In this document: positions 3,839 through 58,780 of the stretch, piece by piece
Layout: each line of letters starts with the position of its first letter
Position numbering within the stretch: position 1 is the stretch's first letter
NCBI GenBank assembly: GCA_039030075.1
Contig: JBCCEW010000004.1
Coordinates: 25,826 to 89,825 of the forward strand
Reading direction: 5' to 3'
From: Myxococcota bacterium
GTDB lineage: Bacteria > Myxococcota_A > UBA9160 > SMWR01
DNA: 64,000 bases
The notes under the pieces: model-generated
Told to the model about the DNA's origin: nothing
Seen by the model: the letters and a program-made list of their open reading frames with translations, nothing else
Databases searched by the model: none
Translations under genes and position numbers: made by a program

Positions 3839-3914
3839 GACCCTGTGATTCTACGGCCTCTGGCCTCCGCACATCCAGCATGCCGGGCAGGATCCCTACA
3901 CCATGCGACGCTTC

Positions 3915-4577
3915 TCAGCCCGGCTCCAGTCCCGCGACGATCGCCTTGAGATTCGCGTCGAAGGTGGCGTCGAAGTCGAAGTCGATGCCGTCGGTCGTCC
4001 AGGCGAGGTTCGGGAACGAGGCGCGTTCTTCGGCCGACAGCTGGAAGACGCGGAAGCCGCCGGAGCCGTGCTCGGCCTCGAGCCGAGCGAAGTGCTCCAG
4101 CCCCTGCACCGCCGAGAACGCGTAGTTCACGACGAGGCTGTAGGCGCGCCAGGCGCCCAGCGCGGAGAACCCGGCTTCGCGCAGCACACCGATGGCGTGG
4201 TCGACGATGGCGAAGGCACTCGGCGTGGCCGGGCCGATCTTCGTGCCGTACTCGGCAGCGCCCGGCATCGCGAGCAAGGTGTCGCGGAACCCGTGGGCGA
4301 GCGCCTCGAGGTAGGGGCGCCATTCCAATGAGGCGTCCGGCAGCACGATCCGCGCACAGTACGCCTCCATGGCGAGGGCGAGGAGTTCGTCGCGCGAACC
4401 GACGTGGCGATAGAGGGCGGTGGCCGTCACCCCGAGGTGCCGGGCAACGCTGTGCATCGAGAAACGGTTCACGCCCACGTCGAGCACGGCGCGCACGATG
4501 GCGTCCTGGCTGAGCGGGGCTCGCGCCGCGGCTCGCGCCTCCTTGCTGATGGAGTCCTTGCTTCCCGATGCGGGCAC
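3915..4577 (-). CDS. TetR/AcrR family transcriptional regulator
   Basis: N-terminal TetR HTH (LSQDAIVRAVLDVGVNRFSMHSVARHLGVTATALYRHVGSRDELL); divergent from LLM oxidoreductase/transporter genes. Confidence 0.85.
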   Translation of the reverse strand: MPASGSKDSISKEARAAARAPLSQDAIVRAVLDVGVNRFSMHSVARHLGVTATALYRHVGSRDELLALAMEAYCARIVLPDASLEWRPYLEALAHGFRDTLLAMPGAAEYGTKIGPATPSAFAIVDHAIGVLREAGFSALGAWRAYSLVVNYAFSAVQGLEHFARLEAEHGSGGFRVFQLSAEERASFPNLAWTTDGIDFDFDATFDANLKAIVAGLEPG

Positions 4578-4649
4578 CGCGTGGCAATCCCTCTACTGGA
4601 CGTGTCGTGGCCCGCTCGGTGGCTTGGAGACTTCACGGGTGATCGTGGT

Positions 4650-4668
4650 GAAAATGATTGTCATTTTC
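4650..4668. promoter_or_regulatory. perfect palindrome GAAAATGA-ttg-TCATTTTC in TetR/LLM divergent intergenic region; candidate TetR operator
   Basis: 8-bp inverted arms with 3-bp spacer in the only AT-rich stretch between the divergent genes at 4577 and 4732. Confidence 0.5.
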
Positions 4669-4731
4669 ATGATAACACCATTAACATGGGTCGCGAGGGC
4701 TGGCCTCTCTGCCCTCGTGGAGGAACCGGCC

Positions 4732-5787
4732 ATGTCCGTCGACCCCGCCGCCGGCCGCGCAGCCTGCCGTTTCGGCCTCTTCCTCAACATGGGCGCGAAC
4801 CTCGCCGCCCGCCCCGAGGAGATCTTCGCGTTCACTCTCGAGCAGGCGGACCTCGCCGAGCGCCTCGGCCTCCACGATCTCTGGCTCTCCGAGCACCACT
4901 TCATTCCTTTCGGACTCGACCCGAGCGCGCTGACGGCGGCCGGGTTCTTGCTCGGAAGAACCCGGCGACTGCGCGTCGGCACTGCGGTCGTCCTGGCACC
5001 GCTGCTCGAACCGATCGATCTTGCCGAACGTGCCGCCCTGTTGGATCAGATGAGCGGGGGGCGCTTCGACCTCGGGCTCGGACGCGGCGGCTACCTGCGT
5101 GACTACGAGGTCTTCGGCGTGGACACGAAGCGGTGGGACGAGGAGCCCGTCCGCTCGCTTTCGACGCTGCTCGACCTCTGGTCGGGGAACGAGGAACGCC
5201 GCGCGCGGGTCGATGTCGGCGGTGCCATGCGCGTAGAGCCGCAGCCCTTCTCGCCGCAGGGTCCGCCCCTGTTTGCCGCGACGAGCTCGCCCGGGGGTCT
5301 CGCCTTCGCCGCCCGGAACGGGCTTCCCTTGCAGCACTACTTCGCCATGCCGGCCCAGGGGCGCGTGGCGGTCGAAGCGCAGTACGAGAAGGAACGACCG
5401 GACGCGGTCGACCCTCCGGAACACCTGCACACCCTGATCGTGCACGTCACCAGCGAGCCCGACCGCGATCGCGAGCGACTCCGCGAGGCCCTGACCACCT
5501 CCTTCCAGGACGGCGACTGGCCGGCGGTGCCCGGCGCCGAGGGGCGCCACCGAGACGCTGACGGCAACCCGGTGGACCGGGCAGCGATGGCCACAGGCGT
5601 CGCCGACGGGGCGATTCTCGGTGACCCCCAGCAGGTCGCGGAAGCACTCCGGGCCTTCATCGACACCACGGGAGCGCGCCGGATCGCGCTCTACGCGGAG
5701 GCCATCGCGGACCGCGAAGCGACCCTCGCCTCGATCGAGCGCTTCGCCAAAGAGGTCGCTCCGAGACTTCAGGGAGGAATGGGATGA
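4732..5787 (+). CDS. LLM-class flavin-dependent oxidoreductase (luciferase-like monooxygenase family)
   Basis: MSVDPAAGRAACRFGLFLNMGANLAARPEE...LWLSEHHF... typical TIM-barrel LLM N-terminus; start refined to ATG at 4732 inside ORF 4420..5787. Confidence 0.8.
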   Translation: MSVDPAAGRAACRFGLFLNMGANLAARPEEIFAFTLEQADLAERLGLHDLWLSEHHFIPFGLDPSALTAAGFLLGRTRRLRVGTAVVLAPLLEPIDLAERAALLDQMSGGRFDLGLGRGGYLRDYEVFGVDTKRWDEEPVRSLSTLLDLWSGNEERRARVDVGGAMRVEPQPFSPQGPPLFAATSSPGGLAFAARNGLPLQHYFAMPAQGRVAVEAQYEKERPDAVDPPEHLHTLIVHVTSEPDRDRERLREALTTSFQDGDWPAVPGAEGRHRDADGNPVDRAAMATGVADGAILGDPQQVAEALRAFIDTTGARRIALYAEAIADREATLASIERFAKEVAPRLQGGMG

Positions 5788-5833
5788 CCGGGACCACCTC
5801 GGGACGTAGCGCCGCCCACCGCGAGCAAGACCG

Positions 5834-8206
5834 ATGAGAGTCGAGCGGTTCAACCAGGCTTTCCGTCGAGTCGGCGCCTTCCAGCTCCGCCATCGCTTCT
5901 GGTTCCTGGTCGCCGCGCTGACGCTCGTGGCGGTGGGCGTGTCGGGAGTGGGTCAGGTCTCGATCAACGTGTCGCGCGATAGCTGGTTCGACGACAGCGA
6001 GGCCATCTCGATCGCGACCGAGCGCTTCGAAGACCGGTTCGGGAACAACGACACGATCGGCATTCTGGTCACCGCGCCCGACGTGCTCCACCCCGAGGTG
6101 CTCACCGCGATTCGCGCCCTCGGCAATGAACTCCTCGACGACGTTCCCCACGCCGACGCGGTGAACTCGCTCGTCGAACTCGAGATCTCGGTGGGCACAC
6201 CGGATGGCGTCGAGATCATCAATCCCTTCGAGGACGGGATCCCGACCGATCCGGACCGGCTCGAGGAGATCCGCGCGCTCCTGCTCTCAAGGCCGGCGCT
6301 GGCCAACCGCCTCTTCTCGGACGACTTCACGGAGACCTGGCTCACACTCGAGCTCCACGAGTACCCGGAAGAAGAAGAGTGGTCCCAGCAGGAGGACGCC
6401 CAGGAACCGATGTTCGACATCGGCGAAGCGGCGATCGCAATCGTCACCGACCCGAAATGGGAAAGCGACCGCTTCACCCTGAAGGCGGCCGGGCTCCCCT
6501 ACACCGAGACCGAGGAACGCGACTACTTCGGGGCCGAGGCCCAGAAACGGGTCGTGTCGGGATTCGGTCTGATGGTGTTGCTGCTCAGCGTCTTCCTGCG
6601 TTCGGTTCGCGGCGTGCTCGTCCCGGTCTTCACGACGGTGATGGGCGTCGTCGTGGTCTTCGGGATCATGGGTTGGCTCGGCATCGCCATCGACGCAACG
6701 CTCGTCACGCTCCCGATCCTGCTCGGGATGGCGCTCTCGGTCAGCTACTCGATCCATATCGTCAACGCCTTCAAGCGCAATCACCGCAAGCATGGGGTGC
6801 GACACGAGGCCGCGATCGCCGCCGTCGAAGAGACCGGCTGGCCCATCGGCTTCACGGCGCTCACGACGATGGGATCGGTGCTGTCGTTCGCAACGGTCGG
6901 GATCGAGACGATTCGCTGGCTGGGCTTTACCTGCGCTGCCGTCGTACTCACCGTCTATCTATTCGTCTCGGTGCTGGTCCCCATCCTGATGAGCTTCGGG
7001 AAGGACCGGGCGCCGGCCGCTGATGCGGGGCAACCGCGCGACTCTGCCTTCGACCGCGGCATGCGCGCGGCCGGAAACCTCGTCATCCAGCGACGGGCAC
7101 TGATGTTGGGGCTCATCGCGCTCTTCGTGATGGTTACGGCGCCGGGAGCCGCTTGGATGCAGGTGAACATGGACATGTTCAAGTTCATCGGTCTCGAGGT
7201 GCCCTACGTGAAACGCGTCTGGGACGTCGCCCACTCCCAGCTCGGTTCCTACCTTTCGTACAACATCACGGTCGAACTCGGGGAGGCCCACGCCATCAAG
7301 GACCCCGAGGTGCTCGAAAAGTTCGACGAATTGATCGAGACAGTAGGCGCCTTCCCACTCACCCAGTCGCACAAGGGCGTGCCCCGGGTCTTCTCGATCC
7401 TCGACATCGTGAAGGAGATGAATCAGACCTTTCATGGGGACGATCCTGCCTTCTACCGGGTCCCCGAGACCCGCGATCTCGTCGCCCAGCTGCTCCTGCT
7501 CTACGAAATCTCCGGTGGCACCAAGACCTTCCGCTGGGTCGACCAGGACTACTCGGTGCTGCGCGCCCAGGTGCAGGTACGGGAGTTCGACGCAAACGAG
7601 GTCGCTCGGGAAATGCGCGTGATCGAGCGCTTCGGCGAGACCCACTTCCCCGGCGCCGAGGTGCACGTCGTCGGATCCGCCGTGCAGTTCGCAGAACTCA
7701 ATCGCAAGATCGTCTCGGGCGAGATCCGCTCACTCCTCACTGCACTCGTCGTCATCGCGGCCCTGATGGTGCTGGTTTTCGGAAGCGTCAAGACGGCGTT
7801 GATCGGCATGCTCCCCAACGTGGCACCGCTCGCCGCCATCGCCGGCTACATGGGCTACTTCGACTCGCCCCTCGACATGATGACCATGACCATCATGCCC
7901 ATGCTCCTCGGCGTCGCCGTCGACGACACGATCCACTTCATCAACCACATGAAGGTCGAGTACGAGCGAAGCGGTGACTACGACCGTGCGATCCGCGAGA
8001 CCTTCTCGACGGTCGGCACGAACCTCGCGATGACGACGATCGTGCTGGGCGGCGCCTTCTTGATGTTCACCCTGTCCCCCATCTCGAACATGGCGCGCAT
8101 CGGCTTCCTGGCGTGCACGGGACTCTTCGTCGCGCTGATCACCGACTATCTGGCCACACCGGCCCTGATCTCGTGGTCGAGGCCCTTCGGCGAGGATCGG
8201 CGGTGA
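5834..8206 (+). CDS. MMPL/RND-superfamily transporter
   Basis: 790 aa with two hydrophobic blocks of multiple TM helices separated by periplasmic-like domains, the architecture of MMPL/HpnN-like RND exporters; downstream of LLM gene under TetR. Confidence 0.7.
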   Translation: MRVERFNQAFRRVGAFQLRHRFWFLVAALTLVAVGVSGVGQVSINVSRDSWFDDSEAISIATERFEDRFGNNDTIGILVTAPDVLHPEVLTAIRALGNELLDDVPHADAVNSLVELEISVGTPDGVEIINPFEDGIPTDPDRLEEIRALLLSRPALANRLFSDDFTETWLTLELHEYPEEEEWSQQEDAQEPMFDIGEAAIAIVTDPKWESDRFTLKAAGLPYTETEERDYFGAEAQKRVVSGFGLMVLLLSVFLRSVRGVLVPVFTTVMGVVVVFGIMGWLGIAIDATLVTLPILLGMALSVSYSIHIVNAFKRNHRKHGVRHEAAIAAVEETGWPIGFTALTTMGSVLSFATVGIETIRWLGFTCAAVVLTVYLFVSVLVPILMSFGKDRAPAADAGQPRDSAFDRGMRAAGNLVIQRRALMLGLIALFVMVTAPGAAWMQVNMDMFKFIGLEVPYVKRVWDVAHSQLGSYLSYNITVELGEAHAIKDPEVLEKFDELIETVGAFPLTQSHKGVPRVFSILDIVKEMNQTFHGDDPAFYRVPETRDLVAQLLLLYEISGGTKTFRWVDQDYSVLRAQVQVREFDANEVAREMRVIERFGETHFPGAEVHVVGSAVQFAELNRKIVSGEIRSLLTALVVIAALMVLVFGSVKTALIGMLPNVAPLAAIAGYMGYFDSPLDMMTMTIMPMLLGVAVDDTIHFINHMKVEYERSGDYDRAIRETFSTVGTNLAMTTIVLGGAFLMFTLSPISNMARIGFLACTGLFVALITDYLATPALISWSRPFGEDRR

Positions 8207-10833: not shown

Positions 10834-11265
10834 ATGCCTGGACGAATGAACCGCGACCAGATCCACGCCTTCCTGGACTCCCGCCCGGGTTGGGCAATCC
10901 TCACCACGCTCAGCGCCGACGGCCTCCCGCACACCGTGCCCCTCGGCTACTACCGGCTTGGCGACGAGATCGTGATGGGAGTGCGCGACGGGACCGCCAA
11001 GGTCGCGAACATCGAGCGTGACTCGCGGGCGAGCGTTCTCCTCGAGTCCGGCAGCACCATGTCGGACATTCGCGGCGTGATGCTGCAGGGACACGCCCGT
11101 GTCCATCGCGCGCCCGACGAAGTCCTGCACTACGCGCGTGAAGGGGCGCGTGCGCGGGGCGTTCCCGAAGCCGAATTGCCGACTGAGGCCCGGGCCGGTG
11201 CGGTCTACATCCGCGTCACCCCGGAGCGGGCGATCTCGTGGGACTACGGGGCCGGCGGCGACTAG
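10834..11265 (+). CDS. pyridoxamine 5'-phosphate oxidase family protein (PPOX class, probable F420/FMN-binding)
   Basis: MPGRMNRDQIHAFLDSRPGWAILTTLSADGLPHTVPLGYYRLGDEIVMG...SVLLE; split-barrel PPOX-class signature; start refined to ATG at 10834. Confidence 0.75.
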   Translation: MPGRMNRDQIHAFLDSRPGWAILTTLSADGLPHTVPLGYYRLGDEIVMGVRDGTAKVANIERDSRASVLLESGSTMSDIRGVMLQGHARVHRAPDEVLHYAREGARARGVPEAELPTEARAGAVYIRVTPERAISWDYGAGGD

Positions 11266-11319
11266 CCCGGTCCGATCGTGGGGGCCTCTGCGGGTCGCCG
11301 CTGGCAAGCGAGCATCGCC

Positions 11320-12195
11320 CTACCCCACCTTCGCGATCACGTTGTCCGCGAACCAGTGGATCTGGCCGACCATGTCCTCGAGACTACGGGTGTCGGGCTC
11401 TGCGTCGTAGGGGTTGCGGAACGCGACGATCGACTCCGCCACTCCGTAGTCTTCGAGCTTCTTCACCCCGTCGGTGGAGAACGCGTCGCCGCTCATGGCC
11501 TGGTACTCGAAGGGCGCGTTCTCGCGACCGTACTCGCGGCGGTAGCCGTCGATCTCGTCGATCAGCACCTTGAATTCGTCGGCTGAGCCGCCGGCGTGGA
11601 TGAAACCATCGGCGAGACGCGCGGCCCGGCGCAGCGCCGGCTTCGCGTGCCCGCCGATCAGCAGCGGCACCGGCTCACTCGGCGCCGGACAGATCTTGAT
11701 CGGATCGAGCTGGAAGATCTCGCCGTCGTAGCCGAAGTACTCGCCGGTGAGGAGCCCGCGCAGGATCTCCATCATTTCGTCCATGCGCTTCCCGCGCCGC
11801 TCCCAGGGGATCTGCGTCGCCGCGAAGTCGTCGGGCCAGGGACTGATCCCGATGCCGAAGGTGAAACGGTTCTTCGTGAGCACCGCCACCGAAGCGAGCT
11901 GCTTCGCCACGATCGCCGGCTGCCGGATCGCCAATTTGTACACGGACGTCGAGAAGCGCAGCTTCGTCGTGATCGCGCCCATCGCCGGCACCACGGTGAA
12001 GGGCTCCAGGAAGGGGACGCCATCCAGGAACTCGCGATCACCGTCGCCGTTGTAGGGGTACTTGCTGTCCGACTCCTGCGGGTAGCAGATGCTGTCGGGC
12101 AGCGTGAAGGTGTCGAAGCCGACTTCTTCGCAGGCCAGCGCGAGGGGCAGGTAGAAGTCGGGATCGCACATGGCGGCGTGGTAGGCAAAACGCAT
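11320..12195 (-). CDS. LLM-class F420-dependent oxidoreductase
   Basis: MRFAYHAAMCDPDFYLPLALACEEVGFDTFTLPDSICYPQ...; 291-aa luciferase-like TIM-barrel of the F420-dependent subfamily. Confidence 0.75.
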   Translation of the reverse strand: MRFAYHAAMCDPDFYLPLALACEEVGFDTFTLPDSICYPQESDSKYPYNGDGDREFLDGVPFLEPFTVVPAMGAITTKLRFSTSVYKLAIRQPAIVAKQLASVAVLTKNRFTFGIGISPWPDDFAATQIPWERRGKRMDEMMEILRGLLTGEYFGYDGEIFQLDPIKICPAPSEPVPLLIGGHAKPALRRAARLADGFIHAGGSADEFKVLIDEIDGYRREYGRENAPFEYQAMSGDAFSTDGVKKLEDYGVAESIVAFRNPYDAEPDTRSLEDMVGQIHWFADNVIAKVG

Positions 12196-29441: not shown

Positions 29442-29517
29442 GCCGCATTGGCTCAGTGGCTAGAGCATCCGCTTGTCGAGCGGAAGAGCGCGGGTTCGAA
29501 TCCCGCATGCGGCGCCA
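29442..29517 (+). tRNA. tRNA-Asp (GTC)
   Basis: Cloverleaf: acceptor GCCGCAT/ATGCGGC, D GCTC-AGTGGCTA-GAGC, anticodon loop TTGTCGA, T-arm GCGGG-TTCGAAT-CCCGC, encoded CCA. Confidence 0.85.
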
Positions 29518-29523
29518 GTTCAC

Positions 29524-29600
29524 CAGGGTGTAGCTCAGTCGGGAAGAGCTCTTTCTTCGGAAGGAAGCGGTCGTTGGTTCGAATCCAACCACCCTGACCA
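29524..29600 (+). tRNA. tRNA-Pro (CGG)
   Basis: Acceptor CAGGGTG/CACCCTG, anticodon loop TTCGGAA, canonical T-loop TTCGAAT, CCA. Confidence 0.85.
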
Positions 29601-29601
29601 G

Positions 29602-29678
29602 GCCGGGGTAGCCCAATCGGCAGAGGCGACGGTCTTAGACACCGTTCAGTGTGGGTTCGAATCCCACCTCCGGTACCA
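29602..29678 (+). tRNA. non-canonical tRNA with anticodon TAG (Leu-decoding): class-II-like 3-bp D-stem but short 5-nt variable loop
   Basis: Acceptor GCCGGGG/CTCCGGT (2 G.U), D-arm GCC-CAATCGGCAGA-GGC resembling tRNA-Leu, anticodon stem ACGGT/ACCGT with loop CTTAGAC, variable TCAGT, T-arm GTGGG-TTCGAAT-CCCAC, A73, CCA. Confidence 0.6.
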
Positions 29679-29684
29679 GTTTTC

Positions 29685-29760
29685 ATCGGCGTAGCTCAGA
29701 GGACAGAGCACCGCTCTGCGAAGGCGGAGGCCGCAGGTTCGAGTCCTGCCGCCGATACCA
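29685..29760 (+). tRNA. tRNA-Arg (GCG; G34 where bacterial Arg tRNAs normally carry A34)
   Basis: Acceptor ATCGGCG/CGCCGAT, anticodon loop CTGCGAA, T-arm GCAGG-TTCGAGT-CCTGC, CCA. Confidence 0.7.
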
Positions 29761-29785
29761 GGATCCCAACAGAGGAGACGTTCGT

Positions 29786-29874
29786 TCCGTGGTGGCGGAA
29801 TTGGCAGACGCACCGGGTTGTTACCCCGGCGCCCGACACCGGGCTTGCAGGTTCGAGGCCTGCCCACGGAGCCA
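29786..29874 (+). tRNA. non-canonical class-II tRNA (long variable arm, Leu-like D-arm) with anticodon GTT (Asn-decoding)
   Basis: Acceptor TCCGTGG/CCACGGA, D-arm GCG-GAATTGGCAGA-CGC (near-identical to E. coli tRNA-Leu D-arm), anticodon stem CCGGG/CCCGG with loop TTGTTAC, 17-nt variable arm with GCCCG-ACAC-CGGGC stem-loop, T-arm GCAGG-TTCGAGG-CCTGC, G73, CCA. Confidence 0.6.
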
Positions 29875-29875
29875 G

Positions 29876-29950
29876 GCCGACATAGCTCATCGAGCAGAGC
29901 ACCTGTTTCGTAACCAGGAGAGCGGGGTGCAAGTCCTCGTGTCGGCTCCA
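29876..29950 (+). tRNA. tRNA-Thr (CGT), T-loop TGCAAGT (G55)
   Basis: Acceptor GCCGACA/TGTCGGC, anticodon loop TTCGTAA, D-loop lacks GG, T-arm CGGGG-TGCAAGT-CCTCG, CCA. Confidence 0.7.
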
Positions 29951-29955
29951 CAACA

Positions 29956-30030
29956 CGCGCGGTAGCTCAGGAAGCAGAGCGCCCGGTTGAAGCCCGGGAG
30001 GCGCTGGTGCGACTCCAGCCTGCGCGACCA
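29956..30030 (+). tRNA. tRNA-Phe (GAA), T-loop TGCGACT (G55)
   Basis: Acceptor CGCGCGG/CTGCGCG, anticodon loop TTGAAGC, T-arm GCTGG-TGCGACT-CCAGC, A73, CCA. Confidence 0.75.
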
Positions 30031-30062
30031 GATTCGATCGATTGGAGAAGTCGTTTGAAACA

Positions 30063-30129
30063 TGCGGAGAGACTCGGAGTCGACCCGGCGTCATGAGCCG
30101 GGGGAGCGGGTTCGACTCCCGCCTCCGCG
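30063..30129 (+). pseudogene. degenerate tRNA-Met-like element (anticodon CAT) with truncated D-arm, no encoded CCA
   Basis: Anticodon arm CCGGC-GTCATGA-GCCGG, T-arm GCGGG-TTCGACT-CCCGC, acceptor TGCGGAG/CTCCGCG, but only 15 nt between acceptor and anticodon stem (tight GACTC-G-GAGTC hairpin instead of a D-arm). Confidence 0.4.
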
Positions 30130-30134
30130 AGTTC

Positions 30135-30209
30135 GTCCACGTGGTCCAGCAGCACGGATTCCGGGTTCTCACCCCGGAGACGCGGGTGCAAACCCCGCCG
30201 TGGGCACCA
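30135..30209 (+). tRNA. tRNA-Glu (CTC), T-loop TGCAAAC (G55)
   Basis: Acceptor GTCCACG/CGTGGGC, D-arm GTCC-AGCAGCAC-GGAT, anticodon loop TTCTCAC, T-arm GCGGG-TGCAAAC-CCCGC, CCA. Confidence 0.75.
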
Positions 30210-30213
30210 GTTC

Positions 30214-30289
30214 TGGCGAGTAGCTCAGAGGAAAGAGCGCCGGTCTGATATGCCGGAGGTCGGGGGTGCGAGGCCCTCCTCGCCAACCA
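30214..30289 (+). tRNA. tRNA-Ile (GAT), T-loop TGCGAGG (G55)
   Basis: Acceptor TGGCGAG/CTCGCCA, anticodon loop CTGATAT, T-arm GGGGG-TGCGAGG-CCCTC, CCA. Confidence 0.75.
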
Positions 30290-30315
30290 GGATTCGAAAC
30301 AGAGGAGAACACTTC

Positions 30316-30390
30316 ACCGTCGTAGCTCAACGAATAGAGCGCCGCGCTTCGGACGCGGAGGATGGGGGTTTGAATCCCCCCGACGGTTCC
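30316..30390 (+). tRNA. tRNA-Arg-like (TCG) with D-loop lacking GG and T-loop TTTGAAT (T56)
   Basis: Acceptor ACCGTCG/CGACGGT perfect 7 bp, D-arm GCTC-AACGAATA-GAGC, anticodon stem CCGCG/CGCGG with loop CTTCGGA, CCA. Confidence 0.55.
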
Positions 30391-30396
30391 ATGCCA

Positions 30397-30469
30397 GGCG
30401 GACGTAGCTCAGGTGGCAGAGCGCCGGCGTGCCACGCCGGAGGCCGCGGGATCGAAGCCCGCCGTCCGC
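30397..30469 (+). tRNA. tRNA-Gly (GCC), T-loop ATCGAAG (A54), CCA not encoded
   Basis: Acceptor GCGGACG/CGTCCGC, D GCTC-AGGTGGCA-GAGC, anticodon loop GTGCCAC, T-arm GCGGG-ATCGAAG-CCCGC, U73. Confidence 0.7.
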
Positions 30470-30471
30470 TC

Positions 30472-30547
30472 CTGGGGGCAGGCGCAATCGGAAGCGCATC
30501 CGGATCTGACCCGGAAGGTTCGGGGTTCGACTCCCCGGCCCCCATCC
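30472..30547 (+). tRNA. tRNA-Gln (CTG)
   Basis: Acceptor TGGGGGC/GCCCCCA, D GCGC-AATCGGAA-GCGC, anticodon stem TCCGG/CCGGA with loop ATCTGAC, T-arm CGGGG-TTCGACT-CCCCG, CCA. Confidence 0.8.
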
Positions 30548-30556
30548 AAAGACGCA

Positions 30557-30629
30557 CAGGGTGCCCGTCGGCTGCGGCCCGGGGACTCCAAATCCCGCGG
30601 AGGAGGGATCGACACCTTCGCACCCTGCC
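30557..30629 (+). tRNA. tRNA-Trp (CCA) with shortened atypical D-arm and A54 T-loop
   Basis: Acceptor AGGGTGC/GCACCCT (like E. coli tRNA-Trp), anticodon loop CTCCAAA identical to E. coli Trp, T-arm GAGGG-ATCGACA-CCTTC, G73 CCA; only 14 nt for the D-arm region. Confidence 0.6.
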
Positions 30630-30636
30630 AAGAACA

Positions 30637-30713
30637 CGGTGGTCGTAGCTCAACGGGCGAGAGTGCCGCTCTGTGACTGCGGAGACCCGGGTTCGAGTCC
30701 CGGCGACCGCCCC
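30637..30713 (+). tRNA. tRNA-His (GTG) with G-1
   Basis: Extra 5' G(-1) opposite C73, acceptor GTGGTCG/CGACCGC, anticodon loop CTGTGAC, T-arm CCGGG-TTCGAGT-CCCGG, CCA. Confidence 0.8.
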
Positions 30714-30728
30714 AACCCGAAAGACACG

Positions 30729-30803
30729 CTGAGGCGTAGCTCGAAGGCAGAGCAACCGATTCTTAATCGGTGGGGTGTGGGTTCGAGTCCCACCGCCTCA
30801 ACC
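30729..30803 (+). tRNA. tRNA-Lys (CTT)
   Basis: Acceptor TGAGGCG/CGCCTCA, D GCTC-GAAGGCA-GAGC, anticodon stem ACCGA/TCGGT with loop TTCTTAA, T-arm GTGGG-TTCGAGT-CCCAC, CCA. Confidence 0.85.
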
Positions 30804-30954
30804 AACCACACCGCGCGATGCGCGCGAGAAGGAGACACGAACGAGGTCAGCGTGGGCGGATCGTCGCCAGCGGAGCCGGTTCTGCATGCCGGCCTGGCGC
30901 GCGGGAGCTGAGAATCGCTCTGGCGCGTACCCGCGACGGACGCAGCGCTTGCCG

Positions 30955-31030
30955 GCATGGATAGCTCCAGTGGAAGAGCAACGGTTTGTCACACCGTGGG
31001 TCGTCGGTTCGAATCCGACTCCAAGCGCCA
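30955..31030 (+). tRNA. tRNA-Asp (GTC), second copy
   Basis: Acceptor GCATGGA/TCCAAGC (one A-A mismatch), D GCTC-CAGTGGAA-GAGC, anticodon stem ACGGT/ACCGT with loop TTGTCAC, T-arm GTCGG-TTCGAAT-CCGAC, CCA. Confidence 0.7.
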
Positions 31031-50373: not shown

Positions 50374-52134
50374 TCAGCCGACGTCGGCCAGGGCGTCGAG
50401 GGCGCGCTGGGCGAGCCCGGCGACGTGACGGTTGTCGTCCTTGGCGGCGTCGGCGAGCGCGTCACGGAAGTACGCTGCGTCGACTCGGGTCATGGCGTTC
50501 ACCGCGTAGAACCGCTCGGTCGGATCTCCCGAACGCTGCGCCGCGACCAGTTCACGGGCCACGTCGAGGCGCCGCTTCTCGTTCTTCGCGTCGCGGAAGG
50601 CGTGGGCCAGTCGCTCGTAGCGATCCTGCACCGCGCCATCGCTCGTGACGACACCGCCGCCGTCGCCGGCCGGCGCCTCGCTGGCCGGCGCTTCGCTCGC
50701 CGGAGCCTCGGGCTCTCCGACCGCGACCATCCGGCGCAGCTCGTCGACCTTGCGGGTCCTAGCGCGTGGCTTCGCCGCGGCGGCTTTCTCGCGCGCCGCC
50801 GTGGCCTTCGACTTCGGACCGCGACGACCCAGGCGTCGGTAGAGCTCGCCCACCGTGGTGGCGCTCTCCGGAGCATCCGGGGCCGCTTCGGCCTCGGCTT
50901 CGGCACCGGGCTGGCGCAGGACATCCGCCAGTCGTGGCATGTCCTTCGTCGGCGCCTTCGTCGACTTCTCGGCGAGAGGGGCCGGCCGATTCGGGACGCG
51001 CGGCCCGCGCGGCACCGCATGCCGGCGCAGGCGGAGCTGGTCGAGGCTACCGAGATCGATCGCCTTCACCGTCTGCTGGACCTTCGACTGGATGGTGTCG
51101 GCTTCGCGCGTCGCCTCTTCGAGCATGTCGTCGATCGAGGCGGGGAGCGCCTGGGATGCCGAGATCATCCGCACCGTCGCAGTCGCGTCGTCGGACGCGA
51201 TGTTGCGGTACAGGCCGATGTACACGGCAGCGCCGCCCGTCTCGCGCTTCAGCTGCTCGACGATCTTCTCGTAGAGAGAGAAGGGGCTCGCCGTCAGAGC
51301 GCGCTCGGACGCCTCGATCACGAGACCGAGGTAGGACACGTCCTTCATGTCCGAGTCCTTCGGCATCATCGGGTTCTCACCGATCGCGCCGCGCACCGAA
51401 TCGAGCACGCCTTCGGCGTTGAGCTCGGGCAGCTCCTCGGTGTGGTAGCTCAGCACACCACCCGAGAAGAGCAGCGTGCGGAAGTCCTCACCATCGAGGG
51501 TGCGAATCGCCTGTGCCGAGTCGCGATCGTTCAGGCGGTTGAAGACGTCGATCGGCTCGACGATCTCGCGGTTGATGGTCTCGAAGTACGAATCGAGGGG
51601 GACGTCCTGGTGGCCCTGCGCCAGACGCGCGTTGTCGATCAGCACCCATCCGTAGGCCGGCGTCGCGGACAGGTCGCGAATCGCGCGCAGCGCGTTCACC
51701 TTGGCGATGCCGCTCTCGTGGTGGTGGGGCAGCGCGGTGAGGATCACGACGGGGAGCGAGAGATCCTCGATCACCTTCGTGAGCTCGGCGACGCACGAAC
51801 CCGTGCCCCCACCGAGGCCGGCGCAGAGCGCCACGACGTCGGCGCCGACGGCATGCTCTTCGACTGCCTTGCGGATGAGATCGGCGTTCTCCGTGACGCA
51901 CTCGGTGCCGTAGTGGGTATCGCTCCCGGCGCCATCCGAGCCTTCGAGGCCGATGTAGATGCGCTGGGATTCGGGCAGGGCGAGGCGGCTGGCCCCGAGG
52001 GAGGTGAGGTCGGTTTGGGCCGTGTTGAAGGCCAGGCCGCGGTATCCACGTCGGTGGAACTCGGCCGCGATGTTGCCGCCGGCCTGACCGAGGCCAACCG
52101 CGACGATCTCGAGAGAACGACCAGAGGGTTTCAT
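50374..52134 (-). CDS. divergent FtsZ/tubulin-superfamily GTPase with about 330-aa basic/Ala-rich C-terminal extension ending in a helical module
   Basis: RBS GGAGAT; LEIVAVGLGQAGGNIAAEF (G-box), FNTAQTDL, ADVVALCAGLGGGTGSCVA (tubulin/FtsZ signature [SAG]GGTG[SA]G), LPVVILTALPHHHESG..., then a long KA/PE-rich tail and a terminal helical module. Confidence 0.75.
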   Translation of the reverse strand: MKPSGRSLEIVAVGLGQAGGNIAAEFHRRGYRGLAFNTAQTDLTSLGASRLALPESQRIYIGLEGSDGAGSDTHYGTECVTENADLIRKAVEEHAVGADVVALCAGLGGGTGSCVAELTKVIEDLSLPVVILTALPHHHESGIAKVNALRAIRDLSATPAYGWVLIDNARLAQGHQDVPLDSYFETINREIVEPIDVFNRLNDRDSAQAIRTLDGEDFRTLLFSGGVLSYHTEELPELNAEGVLDSVRGAIGENPMMPKDSDMKDVSYLGLVIEASERALTASPFSLYEKIVEQLKRETGGAAVYIGLYRNIASDDATATVRMISASQALPASIDDMLEEATREADTIQSKVQQTVKAIDLGSLDQLRLRRHAVPRGPRVPNRPAPLAEKSTKAPTKDMPRLADVLRQPGAEAEAEAAPDAPESATTVGELYRRLGRRGPKSKATAAREKAAAAKPRARTRKVDELRRMVAVGEPEAPASEAPASEAPAGDGGGVVTSDGAVQDRYERLAHAFRDAKNEKRRLDVARELVAAQRSGDPTERFYAVNAMTRVDAAYFRDALADAAKDDNRHVAGLAQRALDALADVG

Positions 52135-52545
52135 GGGGGGATCTCCGGGAAGGGACGAGGTGGATGCCCGCGAACCCGGAGAGGGTCCGCCGGCGGGTTT
52201 CTCGTAGGTAACCCCGGAAGCCGAGTGGGTGTCGCGCAGAAATCGCTGGGAGCGACACTTTCCCGCGACGCCCTCGGGAGCGCGCAGCTTTGGACGCAAA
52301 CGGGCGGACCGCCTGTCGACGGCGGCGGCGTTCGGGAGCCGGATTTCGGCCGATCGACGGCCGCCCCGCGGGCAGGCGGTCTCAGCGACCGGCACTGCCC
52401 TCCGCAGACCTTCGAAGACTCCACTCGCGCTGCAAATGGCCGGCTGAACCCGCCGGGTCCGGCGCCCGCTTCCGGATGAAGCGGGCGCCTCGTCGCCGGA
52501 GAGGAGTGATCCGACGAACCCGGGAGTGGCAGGGCGCCTCTGGGA

Positions 52546-53916
52546 TCAGACGCCGGCTTCGAGGAACTCGGCGAGGCGCGCGACCTCACCCGAGGCGCGG
52601 AGCTTCTCGAGCGCGCCCATCTGGAGCTGGCGGACGCGCTCGCGCGACAGGCCGATCCGGTCGCCGATCTCGTGGAGCGTGAGCGGGTTGCCGTCGGCCC
52701 AGCCGAAGCGCAGCGACAGGACGCTCTGCTCGCGCTGGCTGAGCGCTCGCATCGCATCGCCGAGCACGCGGTGCACGCGCCGCATGTCGAACCCCGAAGC
52801 CGGATCTTCCTCTTCCTCTGCGAGCCGGTCGCCGAGGGTGACCTCACCGTCTTCGGTCACCGGCTCGTCGATCGACTTCGCGCGCGCGGTGACGCCCGCG
52901 ATCCGGTCGACGGTCTCGAAGGGGAGATCCAGCGCGGTGGCCAGGTCCAGAGAATCGGGCTCGGCGGCCTGGCGGGTGAGGAGGCTCTCCCGCGCGCGAC
53001 GTACCGCTCGCTCCTGATCGTAGAGGTTCGAGGGAAGTCGAACGGTTCGCGAGTGGTGCTGGATCGCGCGGATCATCGCCTGCTCGATCCACCACACGGC
53101 GTAGGTCGAGAACTGGAAACCGCGATCCGGATCGAACTTCTCGACCGCCCGCAAGAGACCCACGTTGCCTTCCTGGATCAGGTCGATGAAGGGCACGCCC
53201 AGCTTGCGATAGCGCTTCGCCACCTTGATCACGAGGCGCAGGTTGCGGCTCGCGAAGGTCTGTCGCGCCTCGGAACGATCGCCGCGGGCGCTGGCCGCGG
53301 ACTTGGCGGAGCGCCGGTCACACGCCGCCAGCCCGAGTGCCTTGCGGCGCGCCCGGATCTCGCGGGTGGCCGGTGCAGCAAGTACGGCGGCGAGTTCGGT
53401 GTGCACGTCCTCGAGGATCTCGAGGAGAACGTGCGCCTCCTGGAGTTCCGCGCCGATCTTCTCCGCGACGCGCTGGGTCTGCGTCGCGCTGCGGCCGTGG
53501 CGGTCGACCGATTCCTGCCAGGACGCGAGGTGCTGCTCGAGCGCCTCCATGTGCGCGTCGAACGGCGTGGTCCAGTCGTGGCTCGGGTTCTCCCGGTAGC
53601 GGTGCGCCATCGTGCCCGTCACCCGACCGTCGCGCCGGCGCTCCTGCCAGCGCTCGACCACCAGGCGCGACGCTGCCGGCATCTCGGCGAGAGAAGCCCG
53701 CAGGGCTTCCTCCCCCGCCCGGATCCGGTGGGCGAGTTCGGTGGCCTCGCCGGGCTTCATCAGCGGCAGGCGCCGCAGGGTCTCGAGGTAGCGGCCGACC
53801 GCATCGGGCCCTGCGCCGCTCCCCGAGTCGGAGGGTTGGGTGGTGGCCTCGGGAGCCGGCTCCAGGGCCAGCGGGAGGTCGCGGGTTTCGGAGGTCGAAT
53901 CGAGGTGGTGGTCCAT
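52546..53916 (-). CDS. RNA polymerase sigma factor, sigma-70 family (RpoD/group-2-like)
   Basis: Region 2 ([58 protein letters not shown]), region 3 and region 4 ([29 protein letters not shown]); ATG at 53916 with GAGGGGAA RBS. Confidence 0.85.
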
Positions 53917-53957
53917 TGGGGTTCCCCTCAGTGTTGCGCGCACTGTCTATATTAAAT

Positions 53958-53990
53958 CTAGATTTTTTCTCGACAAGACCTAGACAGACA
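53958..53990. promoter_or_regulatory. three tandem 11-bp direct repeats (CTAGATTTTTT / CTCGACAAGAC / CTAGACAGACA) inside a 70-bp AT-rich island between divergent sigma-70 and MerR/B12 regulator genes
   Basis: About 25% GC in a genome of about 69% GC; repeat spacing of 11 bp exactly; flanked by inverted TGTCTA...TAGACA. Confidence 0.5.
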
Positions 53991-54296
53991 TTATTCTGAA
54001 AAAACTCCCCGGCCCGGAGCCCTCGATGAATCCCACCTCTCCGCAGACTCGACAAAGCCAGAATCCCCCCGGGGGATCCGAGCGTTCCACCTTGCCGGTG
54101 TCGGCCGCTCCGTGCACGTTCCGGCAACTGCTCGACTGGATGCGTGACCTCGAGCTCGACGACCAACAGATCGCCGAGGCGCTGGACGACCTGGTCCAGT
54201 CGGGAACCGTGCGGATCCTCGGACGCCGGGCGACCCACCGCATCCTGGGAGGGCGCCGGCATTGAGCGGACGAAACGCCAGCGGCCGAGGCGCGCC

Positions 54297-55229
54297 ATGA
54301 CACTCGAAGACATCGATCGCAGCGAACCCGTCTCGCTGATCGAGGCGGACGCCACGCCCTACTCTCTGGGCGCCGTCGTGCGCCTCACGGGCCTGACCGC
54401 CCACACCCTCCGCGCCTGGGAGCGCCGCTACGGCGCCGTCGCTCCGGCGCGCACACCGCGCGGCACGCGCCGCTACAGCCGCGAGGAAGTGTCACGGCTG
54501 CGCTTGCTGCGTTCGGCGGTCGACGCAGGACATCGCATCAGCGACATCGCACAGCTGAGCGATGACGACCTCGAGCTGCACCTGCAGCCGATCGCGCGTG
54601 CGCCGGTCGACACGCTGAGCGGCGCACTCGAAGCGCTCGAGGCGCTGGACGCGCCGGGGATCGAACAGCTCCTCACCGACCAGCTCGATCTGCTCGGGCC
54701 CAGTCGCTGCGTCCGTCGCGTGATCCTGCCGTTGATGCGCGAAGTCGGTGACCGCTGGGCCCGCGGCGAAGGATCGGTCGAAGCCGAGCACCTGCTGAGC
54801 AGCACCACCCGCGCGCTGCTGGGCGTGGTACTCCGCAACACGCCGCGCCTTCCGCAGGCCCCTCAGCTCCTGTTCTCCACTCCGGAAGGAGAACCCCACG
54901 AGTTCGGATCGCTGTGTGCCGCGGTGATCGCCGCCGGCGCCGGCGCCGCCGTGACCTACCTCGGCCCCAATCTCCCGGTCTCTGCGGTGATCGGCGCGAC
55001 GCGAAAGTCGAACCCGATCGCCGTGGCACTCGGCGTTGTCACCCTCGACCCGCGCCGGGCGCGGGCCTATCTGCGCGAGTTGCGGGCTTCCCTACCCGAT
55101 GAAACCGGGCTCTGGGTCGGCGGCGCTGCGCTCGCCGAGCCGTTGGCCGGCATCGAGGCACTGGACATCGACACGCTCGAGCGGCGCGTGGCGCGCGCGG
55201 CCCGAAGCGCGCTCGCGCCCAGCCGCTGA
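54297..55229 (+). CDS. MerR-family regulator with C-terminal B12-binding domain (CarH/LitR-like light-responsive repressor)
   Basis: MerR HTH (YSLGAVVRLTGLTAHTLRAWERRYG); C-terminal Rossmann-like B12-binding domain with E-P-H-E-F-G (ExHxxG cobalamin lower-ligand motif) ...AAVIAAGAGAAVTYLGPNLP... Confidence 0.7.
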   Translation: MTLEDIDRSEPVSLIEADATPYSLGAVVRLTGLTAHTLRAWERRYGAVAPARTPRGTRRYSREEVSRLRLLRSAVDAGHRISDIAQLSDDDLELHLQPIARAPVDTLSGALEALEALDAPGIEQLLTDQLDLLGPSRCVRRVILPLMREVGDRWARGEGSVEAEHLLSSTTRALLGVVLRNTPRLPQAPQLLFSTPEGEPHEFGSLCAAVIAAGAGAAVTYLGPNLPVSAVIGATRKSNPIAVALGVVTLDPRRARAYLRELRASLPDETGLWVGGAALAEPLAGIEALDIDTLERRVARAARSALAPSR

Positions 55230-55242
55230 CCCGCTACGGCGA

Positions 55243-55839
55243 TTACTGCTGGGCCGCCCCCAGCCCCCCGCCCTCGTCGTTCATGTAGATCGACTTGCGC
55301 GGCGCGGCGAGGAGCTTGCGCACCATCGGCTCGAAGTGCTCGAGCGGAAGAGTCTCGTATTCGGGATCGAAGCTGTTCTGGTCGTACTTCTGACAGAACG
55401 CGGCGCACTCGCGGAACAGCGGGTGGTCCCGGAATGCGTCCCGCGCGTTTCGGTCGAGACCCAGGTGGTGGAAGAAGTAGTACCCCTGGAAGATGGCGTG
55501 GTGCTTCACGATCCAGTGGTTCTCGTCGGAGACGAAGGGCTCGAGGATCGTCGCCGCAAGATCGGCGTGGTTGGCGGTGGCGAGGGTGTCCCCGATGTCG
55601 TGGAGCAGCGCACACACCACGTACTCGTCGTCACGTCCGTCGCGCTCCGCGCGGGTGGCGGTTTGCAGGCTGTGGGTGAGCCGACTCACGGCATAGCCAC
55701 CGGAATCGCCGTCGAGGATCTGGAGATGCCGGAGCACCCGGTCGGGAAGTCCCTGGAAGAAGTCGAGGCTGTGCTTCCCGATGACCTGGTAGTCCTCGCG
55801 GGTCGCGTCCTGCATCCGCGTGAAGGTGGTGTCCGGCAT
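55243..55839 (-). CDS. HD-domain metal-dependent phosphohydrolase/oxygenase-like protein
   Basis: H..H...ALLHDIGD metal-binding motif; start refined to MPDTTFTRMQ after GGAGGAA RBS. Confidence 0.65.
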   Translation of the reverse strand: MPDTTFTRMQDATREDYQVIGKHSLDFFQGLPDRVLRHLQILDGDSGGYAVSRLTHSLQTATRAERDGRDDEYVVCALLHDIGDTLATANHADLAATILEPFVSDENHWIVKHHAIFQGYYFFHHLGLDRNARDAFRDHPLFRECAAFCQKYDQNSFDPEYETLPLEHFEPMVRKLLAAPRKSIYMNDEGGGLGAAQQ

Positions 55840-57797: not shown

Positions 57798-58148
57798 TCA
57801 GCGGTCCGTGTCGCGCGCCAACAGGATCGCGCCCACCATCTCTTCGGGCATCGCAGCAGGCAACGTGTCGTCGTCTTCGCAAAGACGCTGGCCGAGCTCG
57901 ATGGCGCGCAGGTAGTCCTGGAAGGCCACCTGGCACATCGGACACAGGGTCATGTGGATGTCGAAGCGAGATCGCACCGAGCTCGGCAAGTGGCCCTCGT
58001 AGTAGTCGTGCATGAACGACTCGAACGCTTCACAGGTCAGCATCCCGGGGACGCGGCGAAGCATCCACGAGCCGATCCGGCGCTTCCACGGCGGAGGCGG
58101 ACCGCCGCCCTTCGCGCGCATCAGGAGTCTGGAGAGGAGCGACCACAT
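57798..58148 (-). CDS. zinc-finger (ZAS, HxxxCxxC) anti-sigma factor
   Basis: 116 aa; H...C..C in ...RFDIHMTLCPMCQVAF...; start overlaps the sigma stop as TGATG. Confidence 0.7.
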   Translation of the reverse strand: MWSLLSRLLMRAKGGGPPPPWKRRIGSWMLRRVPGMLTCEAFESFMHDYYEGHLPSSVRSRFDIHMTLCPMCQVAFQDYLRAIELGQRLCEDDDTLPAAMPEEMVGAILLARDTDR

Positions 58149-58780
58149 CAGTCGGCGTCCTCCGCGAAGAGTGGCGCGAGGAGCGTGCGCAAGGCGGATC
58201 GCGCTCGGTGGAGACGCATCTTGATGCTCCCGCGGCTGGTTCCGAGCAACTCGGCGGTCTCTTCGGTAGAGAAGCCGTCGATGTCGCGCAGGAAGAGCAC
58301 GGTGCGGTGGCTCTCGGGCAGGCGCTCGATCGCTTCGCGCACGTGCTTCGCGGTATCGGCGCGGCGGTAGAGCTCCTCGGGGGTGAGATCGTTCGTGTGA
58401 ACCGGACCTTCCCGAAACCCGTAGCGGTCGTAGCGAGGGAGCCAGTCTTCGAGCAGCTCTTCGGGCTTCGCCCGGCGGGAGCGAAGCCGCATCAGCGCGG
58501 CGTTGACGACGATCCGATGGAGCCAGGTCCCGAGGAGCGCGCGCCCTTCGAACCGCCCGATCGATCGATGGGCCGCGAGAAACGCCTCTTGCACGCACTC
58601 GCGCGCGTCATCCTCGTTCTGGAGGTAGCGCTGGGCCACCGAGAGCATGCGCGGGCCCTGGGCGCGGACCAGCTCTTCGAAAGCGGCGGCATCCCCCTCT
58701 CGTAGGCGCGCGACCAGCGCCGACTCGGTCGCCGGGCCGCTCGGGCCAGGAGGATCTTTCGGGTCGCGCGCGTCGCCCAT
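58148..58780 (-). CDS. ECF (sigma-24/sigma-E-like) RNA polymerase sigma factor
   Basis: Region 2 (FEELVRAQGPRMLSVAQRYLQNEDDARECVQEAFLAAHRS) and region 4 (LPESHRTVLFLRDIDGFSTEETAELLGTSRGSIKMRLHRAR). Confidence 0.85.
   Translation of the reverse strand: MGDARDPKDPPGPSGPATESALVARLREGDAAAFEELVRAQGPRMLSVAQRYLQNEDDARECVQEAFLAAHRSIGRFEGRALLGTWLHRIVVNAALMRLRSRRAKPEELLEDWLPRYDRYGFREGPVHTNDLTPEELYRRADTAKHVREAIERLPESHRTVLFLRDIDGFSTEETAELLGTSRGSIKMRLHRARSALRTLLAPLFAEDAD

Follow-up and report, generated by a model that had tools for sequence, protein, structure and literature searches.

B12-based photoreceptors of the CarH/LitR type are known mostly as direct repressors of carotenoid genes. Their class-I members are recognised by an RxWERRY helix and by an intact Wx9EH element, which separates CarH from the B12-independent CarA, while their operators follow the register nnnnTnnACAn, repeated three times in Thermus and four times in Bacillus (PMC9304148). 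In myxobacteria, operators that consist of one or two perfect repeats accompanied by pseudo-repeats, and that overlap the -35 or the -10 box, have been confirmed by experiment (PMC9304148). The sole relay through a sigma factor that we found described is that of Streptomyces, where adenosylcobalamin-bound LitR represses the bidirectional litR/litS promoters and LitS, a sigma factor of the extracytoplasmic function (ECF) type, relays the signal and drives the crt genes (PMC11519972). Here we analyse a 64,000-nucleotide stretch of a Myxococcota bacterium (assembly GCA_039030075.1, contig JBCCEW010000004.1, positions 25,826 to 89,825; hereafter the window), in which a carH/litR-like gene (54297–55229, + strand, 310 amino acids) is divergent from a sigma-70-family gene (52546–53916, - strand, 456 amino acids), with an AT-rich island that bears CarH-type repeats (53934–54005) between them. 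We propose that the adenosylcobalamin (AdoCbl)-loaded CarH-type protein represses overlapping divergent promoters in this island in the dark and that light thereby induces a sigma cascade, a reading to which we assign a probability of roughly two in three.

The best match to the regulator, by both sequence and fold, is Thermus thermophilus CarH (LitR; PDB entries 5C8D/5C8E), with which it shares the three-part architecture, the RxWERRY helix, Wx9EH and ExHxxG...GG, and whose operator is likewise built from tandem 11-bp TnnACA repeats that include a -35 box. The two proteins are nevertheless only 32–34% identical, and the Thermus operator differs from the arrangement found here, which comprises two perfect repeats, one pseudo-repeat and one inverted site; moreover, the target in the window would be a sigma gene, whereas the downstream regulator in Thermus belongs to the CRP/FNR family (Takano 2011). 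The CarH proteins of Myxococcus, Cystobacter and Sorangium, members of the same phylum, act at Pcrt on operators assembled from direct-repeat (DR) and pseudo-repeat (dr) units with the -35 inside a DR, but their direct targets are carotenoid operons that depend on sigma-A; CarQ, the sigma factor linked to light in myxobacteria, is an ECF protein that is freed from its anti-sigma by singlet oxygen and is not controlled by CarH (PMC9304148). The nearest described design is the LitR–LitS switch of Streptomyces, in which a B12-LitR-type gene also diverges from a sigma gene and an operator lies over shared divergent promoters, predicted in our case. What sets the two apart is the class of the sigma factor and the lack of carotenoid genes here: LitS, a small group 4 ECF protein, acts on crt promoters, whereas the protein encoded here carries regions 1.2, 2, 3 and 4, and no crt genes are present in the window. 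The regulons of the class II LitR proteins of Pseudomonas (PplR/PmlR) offer a further parallel, as their light-induced photolyase, CMAS/UfaM-type methyltransferases that modify fatty acids, short-chain dehydrogenase/reductase (SDR) and flavin adenine dinucleotide (FAD) oxidoreductases resemble gene types found near orthologous carH–sigma pairs, although these regulators are devoid of a Rossmann B12 domain and depend on a LOV partner (PMC9758184); they have no described sigma tier. In the literature that we searched, the coverage of which was incomplete, we found no CarH/LitR system relayed by a non-ECF sigma factor.

The 310-residue protein is composed of a MerR-type DNA-binding domain, a four-helix bundle and a Rossmann B12-binding domain, and Pfam scores MerR_1 at 61.6 bits and B12-binding_2 at 48.7 bits. 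A phmmer search of the PDB places T. thermophilus CarH (TtCarH, 5C8D) first with an E value of 2e-33 and with all cofactor residues in register, and among the NCBIfam families CarH (NF052513) is the best by a wide margin. The recognition-helix motif LRAWERRYG occupies residues 38–46, and the Wx9EH element is intact (W154-ARGEGSVEA-E164-H165, aligned to W131...E141-H142 of TtCarH). The lower-ligand motif ExHxxG reads E199-P-H201-E-F-G204 and aligns with its TtCarH counterpart; the loss of this histidine upon careful alignment, which the initial annotation had named as the finding that would speak against its proposal, is thus not observed, and H201 falls on the ligand position. The spacing of the Rossmann module is equally regular, with G246-V-V following EPHEFG after 41 residues and GG275–276 coming 26 residues later. 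In an alignment of 31 homologues (40–68% identity), R39, A40, W41, E42 and R44 of the recognition helix are invariant, as are W154, E164, H165, E199, H201, G275 and G276. An AlphaFold2 model built from this same alignment has a mean pLDDT of 90.8, and Foldseek ranks full-length TtCarH (E 2e-19) and the cobalamin-binding domain of TtCarH (TM score ~0.8, root-mean-square deviation ~3 Å) highest. Since an intact Wx9EH together with a classic B12 motif marks CarH over CarA by the published criterion (PMC9304148), we consider the protein to be CarH-type, and the predicted fold and the motifs support the class-I CarH/LitR layout of a B12-based light-sensor repressor, in agreement with the photoreceptor architecture and EPHEFG ligand motif that the initial annotation had attributed to this MerR protein. 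From the motifs and the genomic context we infer that it would bind B12 and respond to light. From end to end, the translations of both the sigma and the MerR genes match annotated proteins of a Myxococcota metagenome-assembled genome (MAG) at NCBI with 100% identity, so that their start codons are not in dispute.

The intergenic region is exceptional within the window. The window has an overall GC content of 68% (70-bp windows average 68%, with a standard deviation of 5.4%), and its lowest-GC 70-mer is found at 53934–54003 (34% GC; 29% for 53944–54005). An unusual AT-rich island between the two divergent genes had thus been correctly recognised, but the figure of about 25% GC given for it is replaced by 29–34%, and the island is not centred between the genes: it abuts the sigma gene, 28–90 bp upstream of its start, and lies ~290 bp upstream of carH, from which an orphan open reading frame (ORF) separates it. 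Three contiguous 11-mers, CTAGATTTTTT, CTCGACAAGAC and CTAGACAGACA, occupy 53958–53990, just as first read. When shifted by three bases into the published register nnnnTnnACAn they become a dr-DR-DR array (53955–53987), that is, one pseudo-repeat followed by two perfect repeats. The pseudo-repeat dr1, AATCTAGATTT (T-nn-Att; 53955–53965, + strand), holds the TCTAGA palindrome, of which the 64 kb contain a single copy, and is kept in the closest related locus (L001). DR2, TTTCTCGACAA (53966–53976, + strand), holds a -35 hexamer on the + strand, TCGACA, and the putative -35 of the sigma gene, TTGTCG, on the opposite one; its GACAA core is kept in L001 and in a second divergent locus, L006, at the same 26-bp offset from TGTyTA. 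DR3, GACCTAGACAG (53977–53987, + strand), is a perfect TnnACA located 11 bp after DR2. A fourth half-site in the same cluster is inverted (TGTCTA on the + strand, TAGACA on the - strand, 53944–53949), is 11 bp distant from TCTAGA as read on the - strand and is identical in L001; two of the four TAGACA copies of the window belong to this cluster.

We next consider how far such an array departs from chance. The tandem motif TnnACA-N5-TnnACA occurs once in the 64 kb, in the island. Taken alone, the window-wide expectation of ~0.23, with at least one occurrence in 22 of 100 shuffles, is not impressive. Dinucleotide shuffles of the intergenic DNA alone, in contrast, yield P = 0.0004–0.002 for a tandem match, and AT-richness therefore does not explain the repeats. 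Comparison with L001 reveals that the block TGTCTATATTA-ATCTAGA is identical at 19 of 20 positions whereas the surrounding intergenic DNA has diverged. Furthermore, the strict tandem motif is present between -250 and +30 of the carH start in 36 of the 79 related loci with enough upstream sequence, at a density of 1.93 per kb, compared with 0.025 per kb in the remainder of the same loci, and from this 76-fold enrichment we conclude that the operator logic holds across the family. The comparison with the CarH operator consensus that had been suggested as a check thus returns a fit to nnnnTnnACAn in an array that is non-random by local shuffles.

The repeats also overlap a promoter, as originally proposed. 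A consensus scan of 53800–54400 returned one promoter-like match, the sigma-70-type TCGACA-16-TATTCT (53970–53997, + strand; 0.0 expected in shuffles), which is directed toward orf79, the orphan ORF, and carH, and has its -35 within DR2. On the opposite strand, a putative promoter of the sigma gene can be read by eye as TTGTCG (53976–71)-16-TAATAT (53954–49), spanning 53949–53976; transcription from it would begin ~25 nt before the sigma ATG, with a GAGGGGA ribosome-binding site in between. Its layout recurs in the other divergent loci, as TTGTCT-16-TAATAT in L001 and TTGTCA-17-TATATA in L006. If this assignment is right, the two -35 hexamers, one on each strand, nearly coincide, and both promoters are covered by CarH sites. 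Since 28 bp separate the edge of the operator from the start codon of the sigma gene, transcription of the sigma gene must in any case start within the operator or pass through it. An alternative -35, TAGACA (53949–44), was considered by homology with the TTGACA of loci L002, L007 and L008 and discarded, as no -10-like hexamer is found 17 bp downstream of it in the window or in L001; for this reason TTGTCG-16-TAATAT is the preferred candidate.

Related loci were gathered mainly by a metagenome scan and exact-protein look-ups, while a genome-contig scan with a single protein gave two loci. A sigma homologue is adjacent in all six distinct related loci with a CarH at least 52% identical to ours, apart from L004/L005, and sigma homologues adjoin carH in L001, L002/L003, L006, L007, L008 and L091. 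L001 (CarH 72% and sigma 81% identical) preserves the order FtsZ-like gene, sigma, carH and HD-domain gene, while L006 (CarH 57%) keeps the divergent carH/sigma pair among different neighbours. In L002/L003, L007 and L008 (CarH 52–57%), carH is followed by the sigma gene on the same strand; one tandem site, TGTCAAAyTGmTGTCTAGA, lies 5' of carH and is shared with a divergent DCC1-like gene, and a second module (TAGAyA-N5-TTGACA, for example TGTCTAGATTATTCTAGACATAACCTTGACA) lies between carH and sigma, with CAGATT or GATGAT 17 nt after TTGACA. In L091, which was found from the sigma side, carH is divergent from a CMAS–sigma operon with TAGATTTTTTCTTGACA upstream, nearly the sequence of the window. 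In L089, a sigma gene diverges from a MerR gene whose CarH-like product has no B12 domain, and the AT-rich region between them is full of such sites; in L090 (ABC1–sigma) and L092 the motif TTGTCyAnATAAAATCTTGACA precedes the sigma gene while carH is located elsewhere; L092 and the unlinked carH of L004 come from the same MAG. In an alignment of the DNA upstream of nine sigma genes, the T..A.A and T..ACA columns are invariant. Among ~80 CarH loci of 48% identity or less, many of them on short contigs, no adjacent sigma gene was seen. The suggestion that the sigma gene is a target of CarH thus receives computational support from a pairing that recurs in differing gene orders and from operator-like modules 5' of sigma.

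A number of side observations were made in these loci. MerR proteins of 338–347 amino acids with a CarH-like DNA-binding domain and no B12 domain are encoded in L089 (3766–4782, - strand) and L091 (6332–7375, + strand); they share the C-terminal motif SV(L/A)CECP...L(I/L)AFE(E/R)Y, adjoin sigma homologues, in L091 alongside a true CarH, and may represent a B12-independent LitR-like class. An ABC1/UbiB-type kinase gene forms an apparent operon with carH in L004 (small ORF, ABC1, carH; 4394–4421 and 4451–6894) and with sigma in L090 (ABC1, sigma; 3588–6365), and a CarH-type repeat module is present upstream of both. Finally, next to the DCC1-like gene that is divergent from carH in L007 lies an ORF (5668–6504, - strand) in which the N-terminal 36 residues of a DNA photolyase are fused to the C-terminal portion of the large subunit of a NiFeSe hydrogenase; this fusion probably reflects chimeric assembly or binning of that MAG chromosome.

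The sigma factor itself differs in class from LitS, the one such relay factor that we found described. Pfam and NCBIfam identify regions 1.2, 2, 3 and 4, with ~150 residues between 1.2 and 2, and the protein scores best against the RpoD, RpoS, SigA and SigB families, its best PDB relatives being SigA, RpoS and SigB; on these grounds it is not an ECF factor. A housekeeping role is unlikely because region 1.1 is missing and the protein scores below all RpoD equivalog thresholds, and we classify it as a probable alternative, full-length, RpoD/RpoS-like sigma factor. Region 4.2 retains SRERVRQ, while region 2.4 differs where primary sigma factors have WWIRQAITRA, which hints at a TTGACA-like -35 preference combined with an altered -10 preference. 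The neighbours of related sigma genes include CMAS, amine oxidase, DUF1365, AhpC, glutathione peroxidase, DUF1722/2-thiouracil desulfurase, NmrA/DUF2867, DCC1-like, lipocalin and SOUL genes and a photolyase fragment, which gives these neighbourhoods a photo-oxidative-stress flavour. The light-induced LitR targets of Pseudomonas include photolyase, furan or cyclopropane fatty-acid synthase, SDR and FAD oxidoreductase genes (PMC9758184), and the two sets overlap when compared at the level of gene types. The idea of a single exclusive clade of CarH-linked sigma factors was abandoned, since a rough neighbour-joining tree gives two subgroups with the operator-less sigma genes of L093 and L094 nested among them.

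Taken together, these results lead us to the following model. In the dark, the CarH-type protein would bind adenosylcobalamin, to which His201 would contribute the lower ligand while W154, E164 and H165 cap the adenosyl group. The AdoCbl-loaded protein would then oligomerise, and its MerR-type heads would occupy the 43-bp cluster of TnnACA elements (53944–53987) at 11-bp spacing, covering the -35 of the orf79–carH promoter as well as the -35, spacer and -10 of the opposite sigma promoter and thereby keeping both promoters off. Light would break the Co–C bond, the oligomer would dissociate and both promoters would open, yielding more CarH, in a negative feedback, and the full-length alternative sigma factor. 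The latter would direct RNA polymerase towards a further set of genes for the response to light or photo-oxidative stress, such that light probably switches on a second-tier transcription programme.

In this model the bound protein would repress rather than activate; the same sensor and operator could also be arranged so that the light-converted form acts on the sigma promoter as an activator of the MerR style instead of simply leaving it, following the Streptomyces scheme in which light-converted LitR-B12 activates litS (PMC11519972). Membership of the MerR family would suit such an arrangement, but the promoters predicted here have 16-nt spacers. Promoters subject to MerR-type activation typically have spacers of 19–20 nt. 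Since the characterised CarH proteins of Thermus, Bacillus and myxobacteria are, in addition, plain repressors with operators overlapping the -35 or -10 (PMC9304148), we regard activation as unlikely. The operator might otherwise serve carH alone, in which case CarH would control its own unit (orf79–carH), the sigma gene would be expressed independently and the neighbourhood would be a historical accident. The perfect repeats do face carH, and so does the sole promoter returned by the consensus scan; however, with the operator placed 28–70 bp upstream of the sigma start codon, any sigma promoter overlaps it or reads through it, and the carH–sigma pairing is encountered in three gene orders, with a separate operator-like module directly 5' of the sigma gene where this is downstream or unlinked, which makes independent expression decidedly unlikely.

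The nature of the signal can be questioned as well. The protein could sense B12 availability or redox state instead of light and couple sigma expression to cofactor supply, a view compatible with the lack of photoprotection genes in the window and with the dependence of CarH-type proteins on B12 for DNA binding (PMC9304148). By virtue of this dependence, any CarH-type system also reports B12 status. Yet the intact Wx9EH is the published marker that distinguishes light-sensing CarH from B12-independent CarA (PMC9304148), and orthologous pairs adjoin photolyase- and photo-oxidative-stress-type genes, so that a sensor blind to light seems improbable here. Last, one might take the repeats for a product of chance in AT-rich promoter DNA, or for the binding site of another regulator, with CarH acting elsewhere in the genome. 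This is highly improbable, for although a tandem match appears in 22% of window-wide shuffles and the perfect repeats number only two, the local-composition shuffles (P ~0.001), the enrichment of the motif upstream of carH genes and the conservation of the operator core between diverged flanks all argue otherwise.

Dark repression by AdoCbl-CarH and light induction of the sigma factor accordingly remain our preferred reading, but several observations weigh against it. On the protein side, Pfam B12-binding reaches 21.5 bits, under the 32.1 cut-off, and the score against NF052513 is 129.1 bits, short of the 400-bit equivalog threshold, so that the NCBI criterion makes the protein a distant member of the CarH family rather than an equivalog. 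In the SxT/V element the Ser has given way to Gly246, with the T/V position kept, and the residue after the Trp is Ala155 (A, E or similar in the clade) instead of His132 of TtCarH, a histidine that forms the bis-His light-state adduct and is found in "many" homologues without being universal (PMC9304148). On the DNA side, just two of the three repeats are perfect, DR3 is not conserved in L001, carH is ~290 nt away from the operator behind the orphan ORF, and the candidate - strand promoter matches 8 of 12 consensus positions, under the scan threshold, for which reason the scan did not report it. No operator-like module was found upstream of the related sigma genes of L093 and L094, and the carH–sigma/operator link is hence not universal in the family; the sigma homologues adjoining carH themselves fall into two subgroups with ~35% identity between them. 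Finally, the 64-kb window contains no carotenoid, photolyase or CMAS genes, tblastn searches of it with CMAS, DUF1722, DCC1, AhpC, NmrA/DUF2867, ABC1 and other proteins from the related loci gave no match, and Rfam finds no cobalamin riboswitch anywhere in it.

The initial annotation had tentatively extended light and B12 control to the FtsZ/tubulin-like gene behind the sigma gene (50374–52134, - strand; 586 amino acids with the start corrected to ATG 52134), whose product is a very divergent member of that family (67 bits against an FtsZ cut-off of 295). This extension is not supported, and co-transcription with the sigma gene was rejected: the FtsZ-like start lies 411 bp past the sigma stop, a GC-rich perfect 12-bp hairpin without a U tract, identified by RNA folding as a candidate terminator (52461–52489, - strand), occurs 57 nt after that stop, and the gene accompanies sigma in L001 only. 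A different hairpin-forming sequence is present at the corresponding place in L001, and a terminator scan found none with a T tail. Upstream of the FtsZ-like gene (52229–52258, - strand), the inverted repeat GTGTCGC-N16-GCGACAC and the adjoining block CTTCCGGGGnTACCTACGAGA are conserved in L001, in contrast to the remainder of the 411-bp spacer, which has diverged, and this block may constitute the gene's own regulatory region. The FtsZ-like gene could still belong to the sigma regulon.

The proposal of a light/singlet-oxygen-like module comprising an HD-domain protein and an ECF sigma/anti-sigma pair fares no better. The HD-domain gene (55243–55839, - strand) is convergent with carH across a 13-bp gap and is followed by an LCAT-like gene; its product bears a weak resemblance to HD oxygenases of the PhnZ/TmpB type (42 bits, where the cut-off is 215) and to MIOX, and is conserved in L001 only. 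The ECF sigma gene and its short cytoplasmic HxxxCxxC (ZAS) anti-sigma (57798–58780, - strand) are ~3 kb from carH, and an ECF sigma homologue (55% identical) lies near carH in L006 only (10953–11516), at a similar distance and beside an MbnB/DUF2063 fusion gene. With no conserved tie beyond these two instances, neither was retained as a part of the module.

Between the operator and carH, orf79 (54026–54265, + strand, 79 amino acids) looks coding, with GC fractions by codon position of 0.70/0.53/0.79, and is called as 57 amino acids from TTG 54092 in the public annotation. Pfam offers a sub-threshold winged-helix hint only. We considered whether it might be a conserved partner, for instance an antirepressor resembling CarS, and rejected this: tblastn finds no homologue in any related locus, the closest relative L001 included, and among 1.84 billion representative proteins the sole match is its own 57-aa version. 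Lacking homologues, it is kept as an orphan ORF or leader. The possibility that the long leader of carH contains a cobalamin riboswitch or another RNA was likewise rejected, as Rfam returns nothing for it even at E ≤ 1. P450 and DUF3179 genes on the + strand precede the FtsZ-like gene in the window. Elsewhere in the window, an array of 15 tRNA genes spans 1.6 kb (29442–31027, + strand), all above the Rfam gathering score, and the sole other AT-rich island (4622–4701) holds GAAAATGATTGTCATTTTCATGATAAC, which resembles a Fur-box-type inverted repeat and lies shortly 5' of an ORF starting near 4733.

More broadly, the locus and its relatives suggest that a full-length, group-2-like class of sigma factor has been placed under CarH control and kept across divergent uncultured lineages. 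If this is true, light would reprogramme transcription beyond pigment synthesis in these bacteria. A single operator with two fully overlapping divergent promoters could, in turn, serve as a compact optogenetic part. A wider generalisation is tentative and, in our estimation, rather doubtful as a whole: that RpoD/RpoS-like sigma paralogues in uncultured Myxococcota and allied lineages act as the dedicated output of AdoCbl-CarH, a non-ECF light sigma expressed from one operator over two divergent promoters sharing one -35 position and heading a regulon for photo-oxidative stress (with CMAS, AhpC, DUF1722 and ABC1 kinase among others), which in this lineage would perhaps reach the divergent FtsZ-like protein. 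Were the latter part of the light regulon, cell architecture itself would be tied to light.

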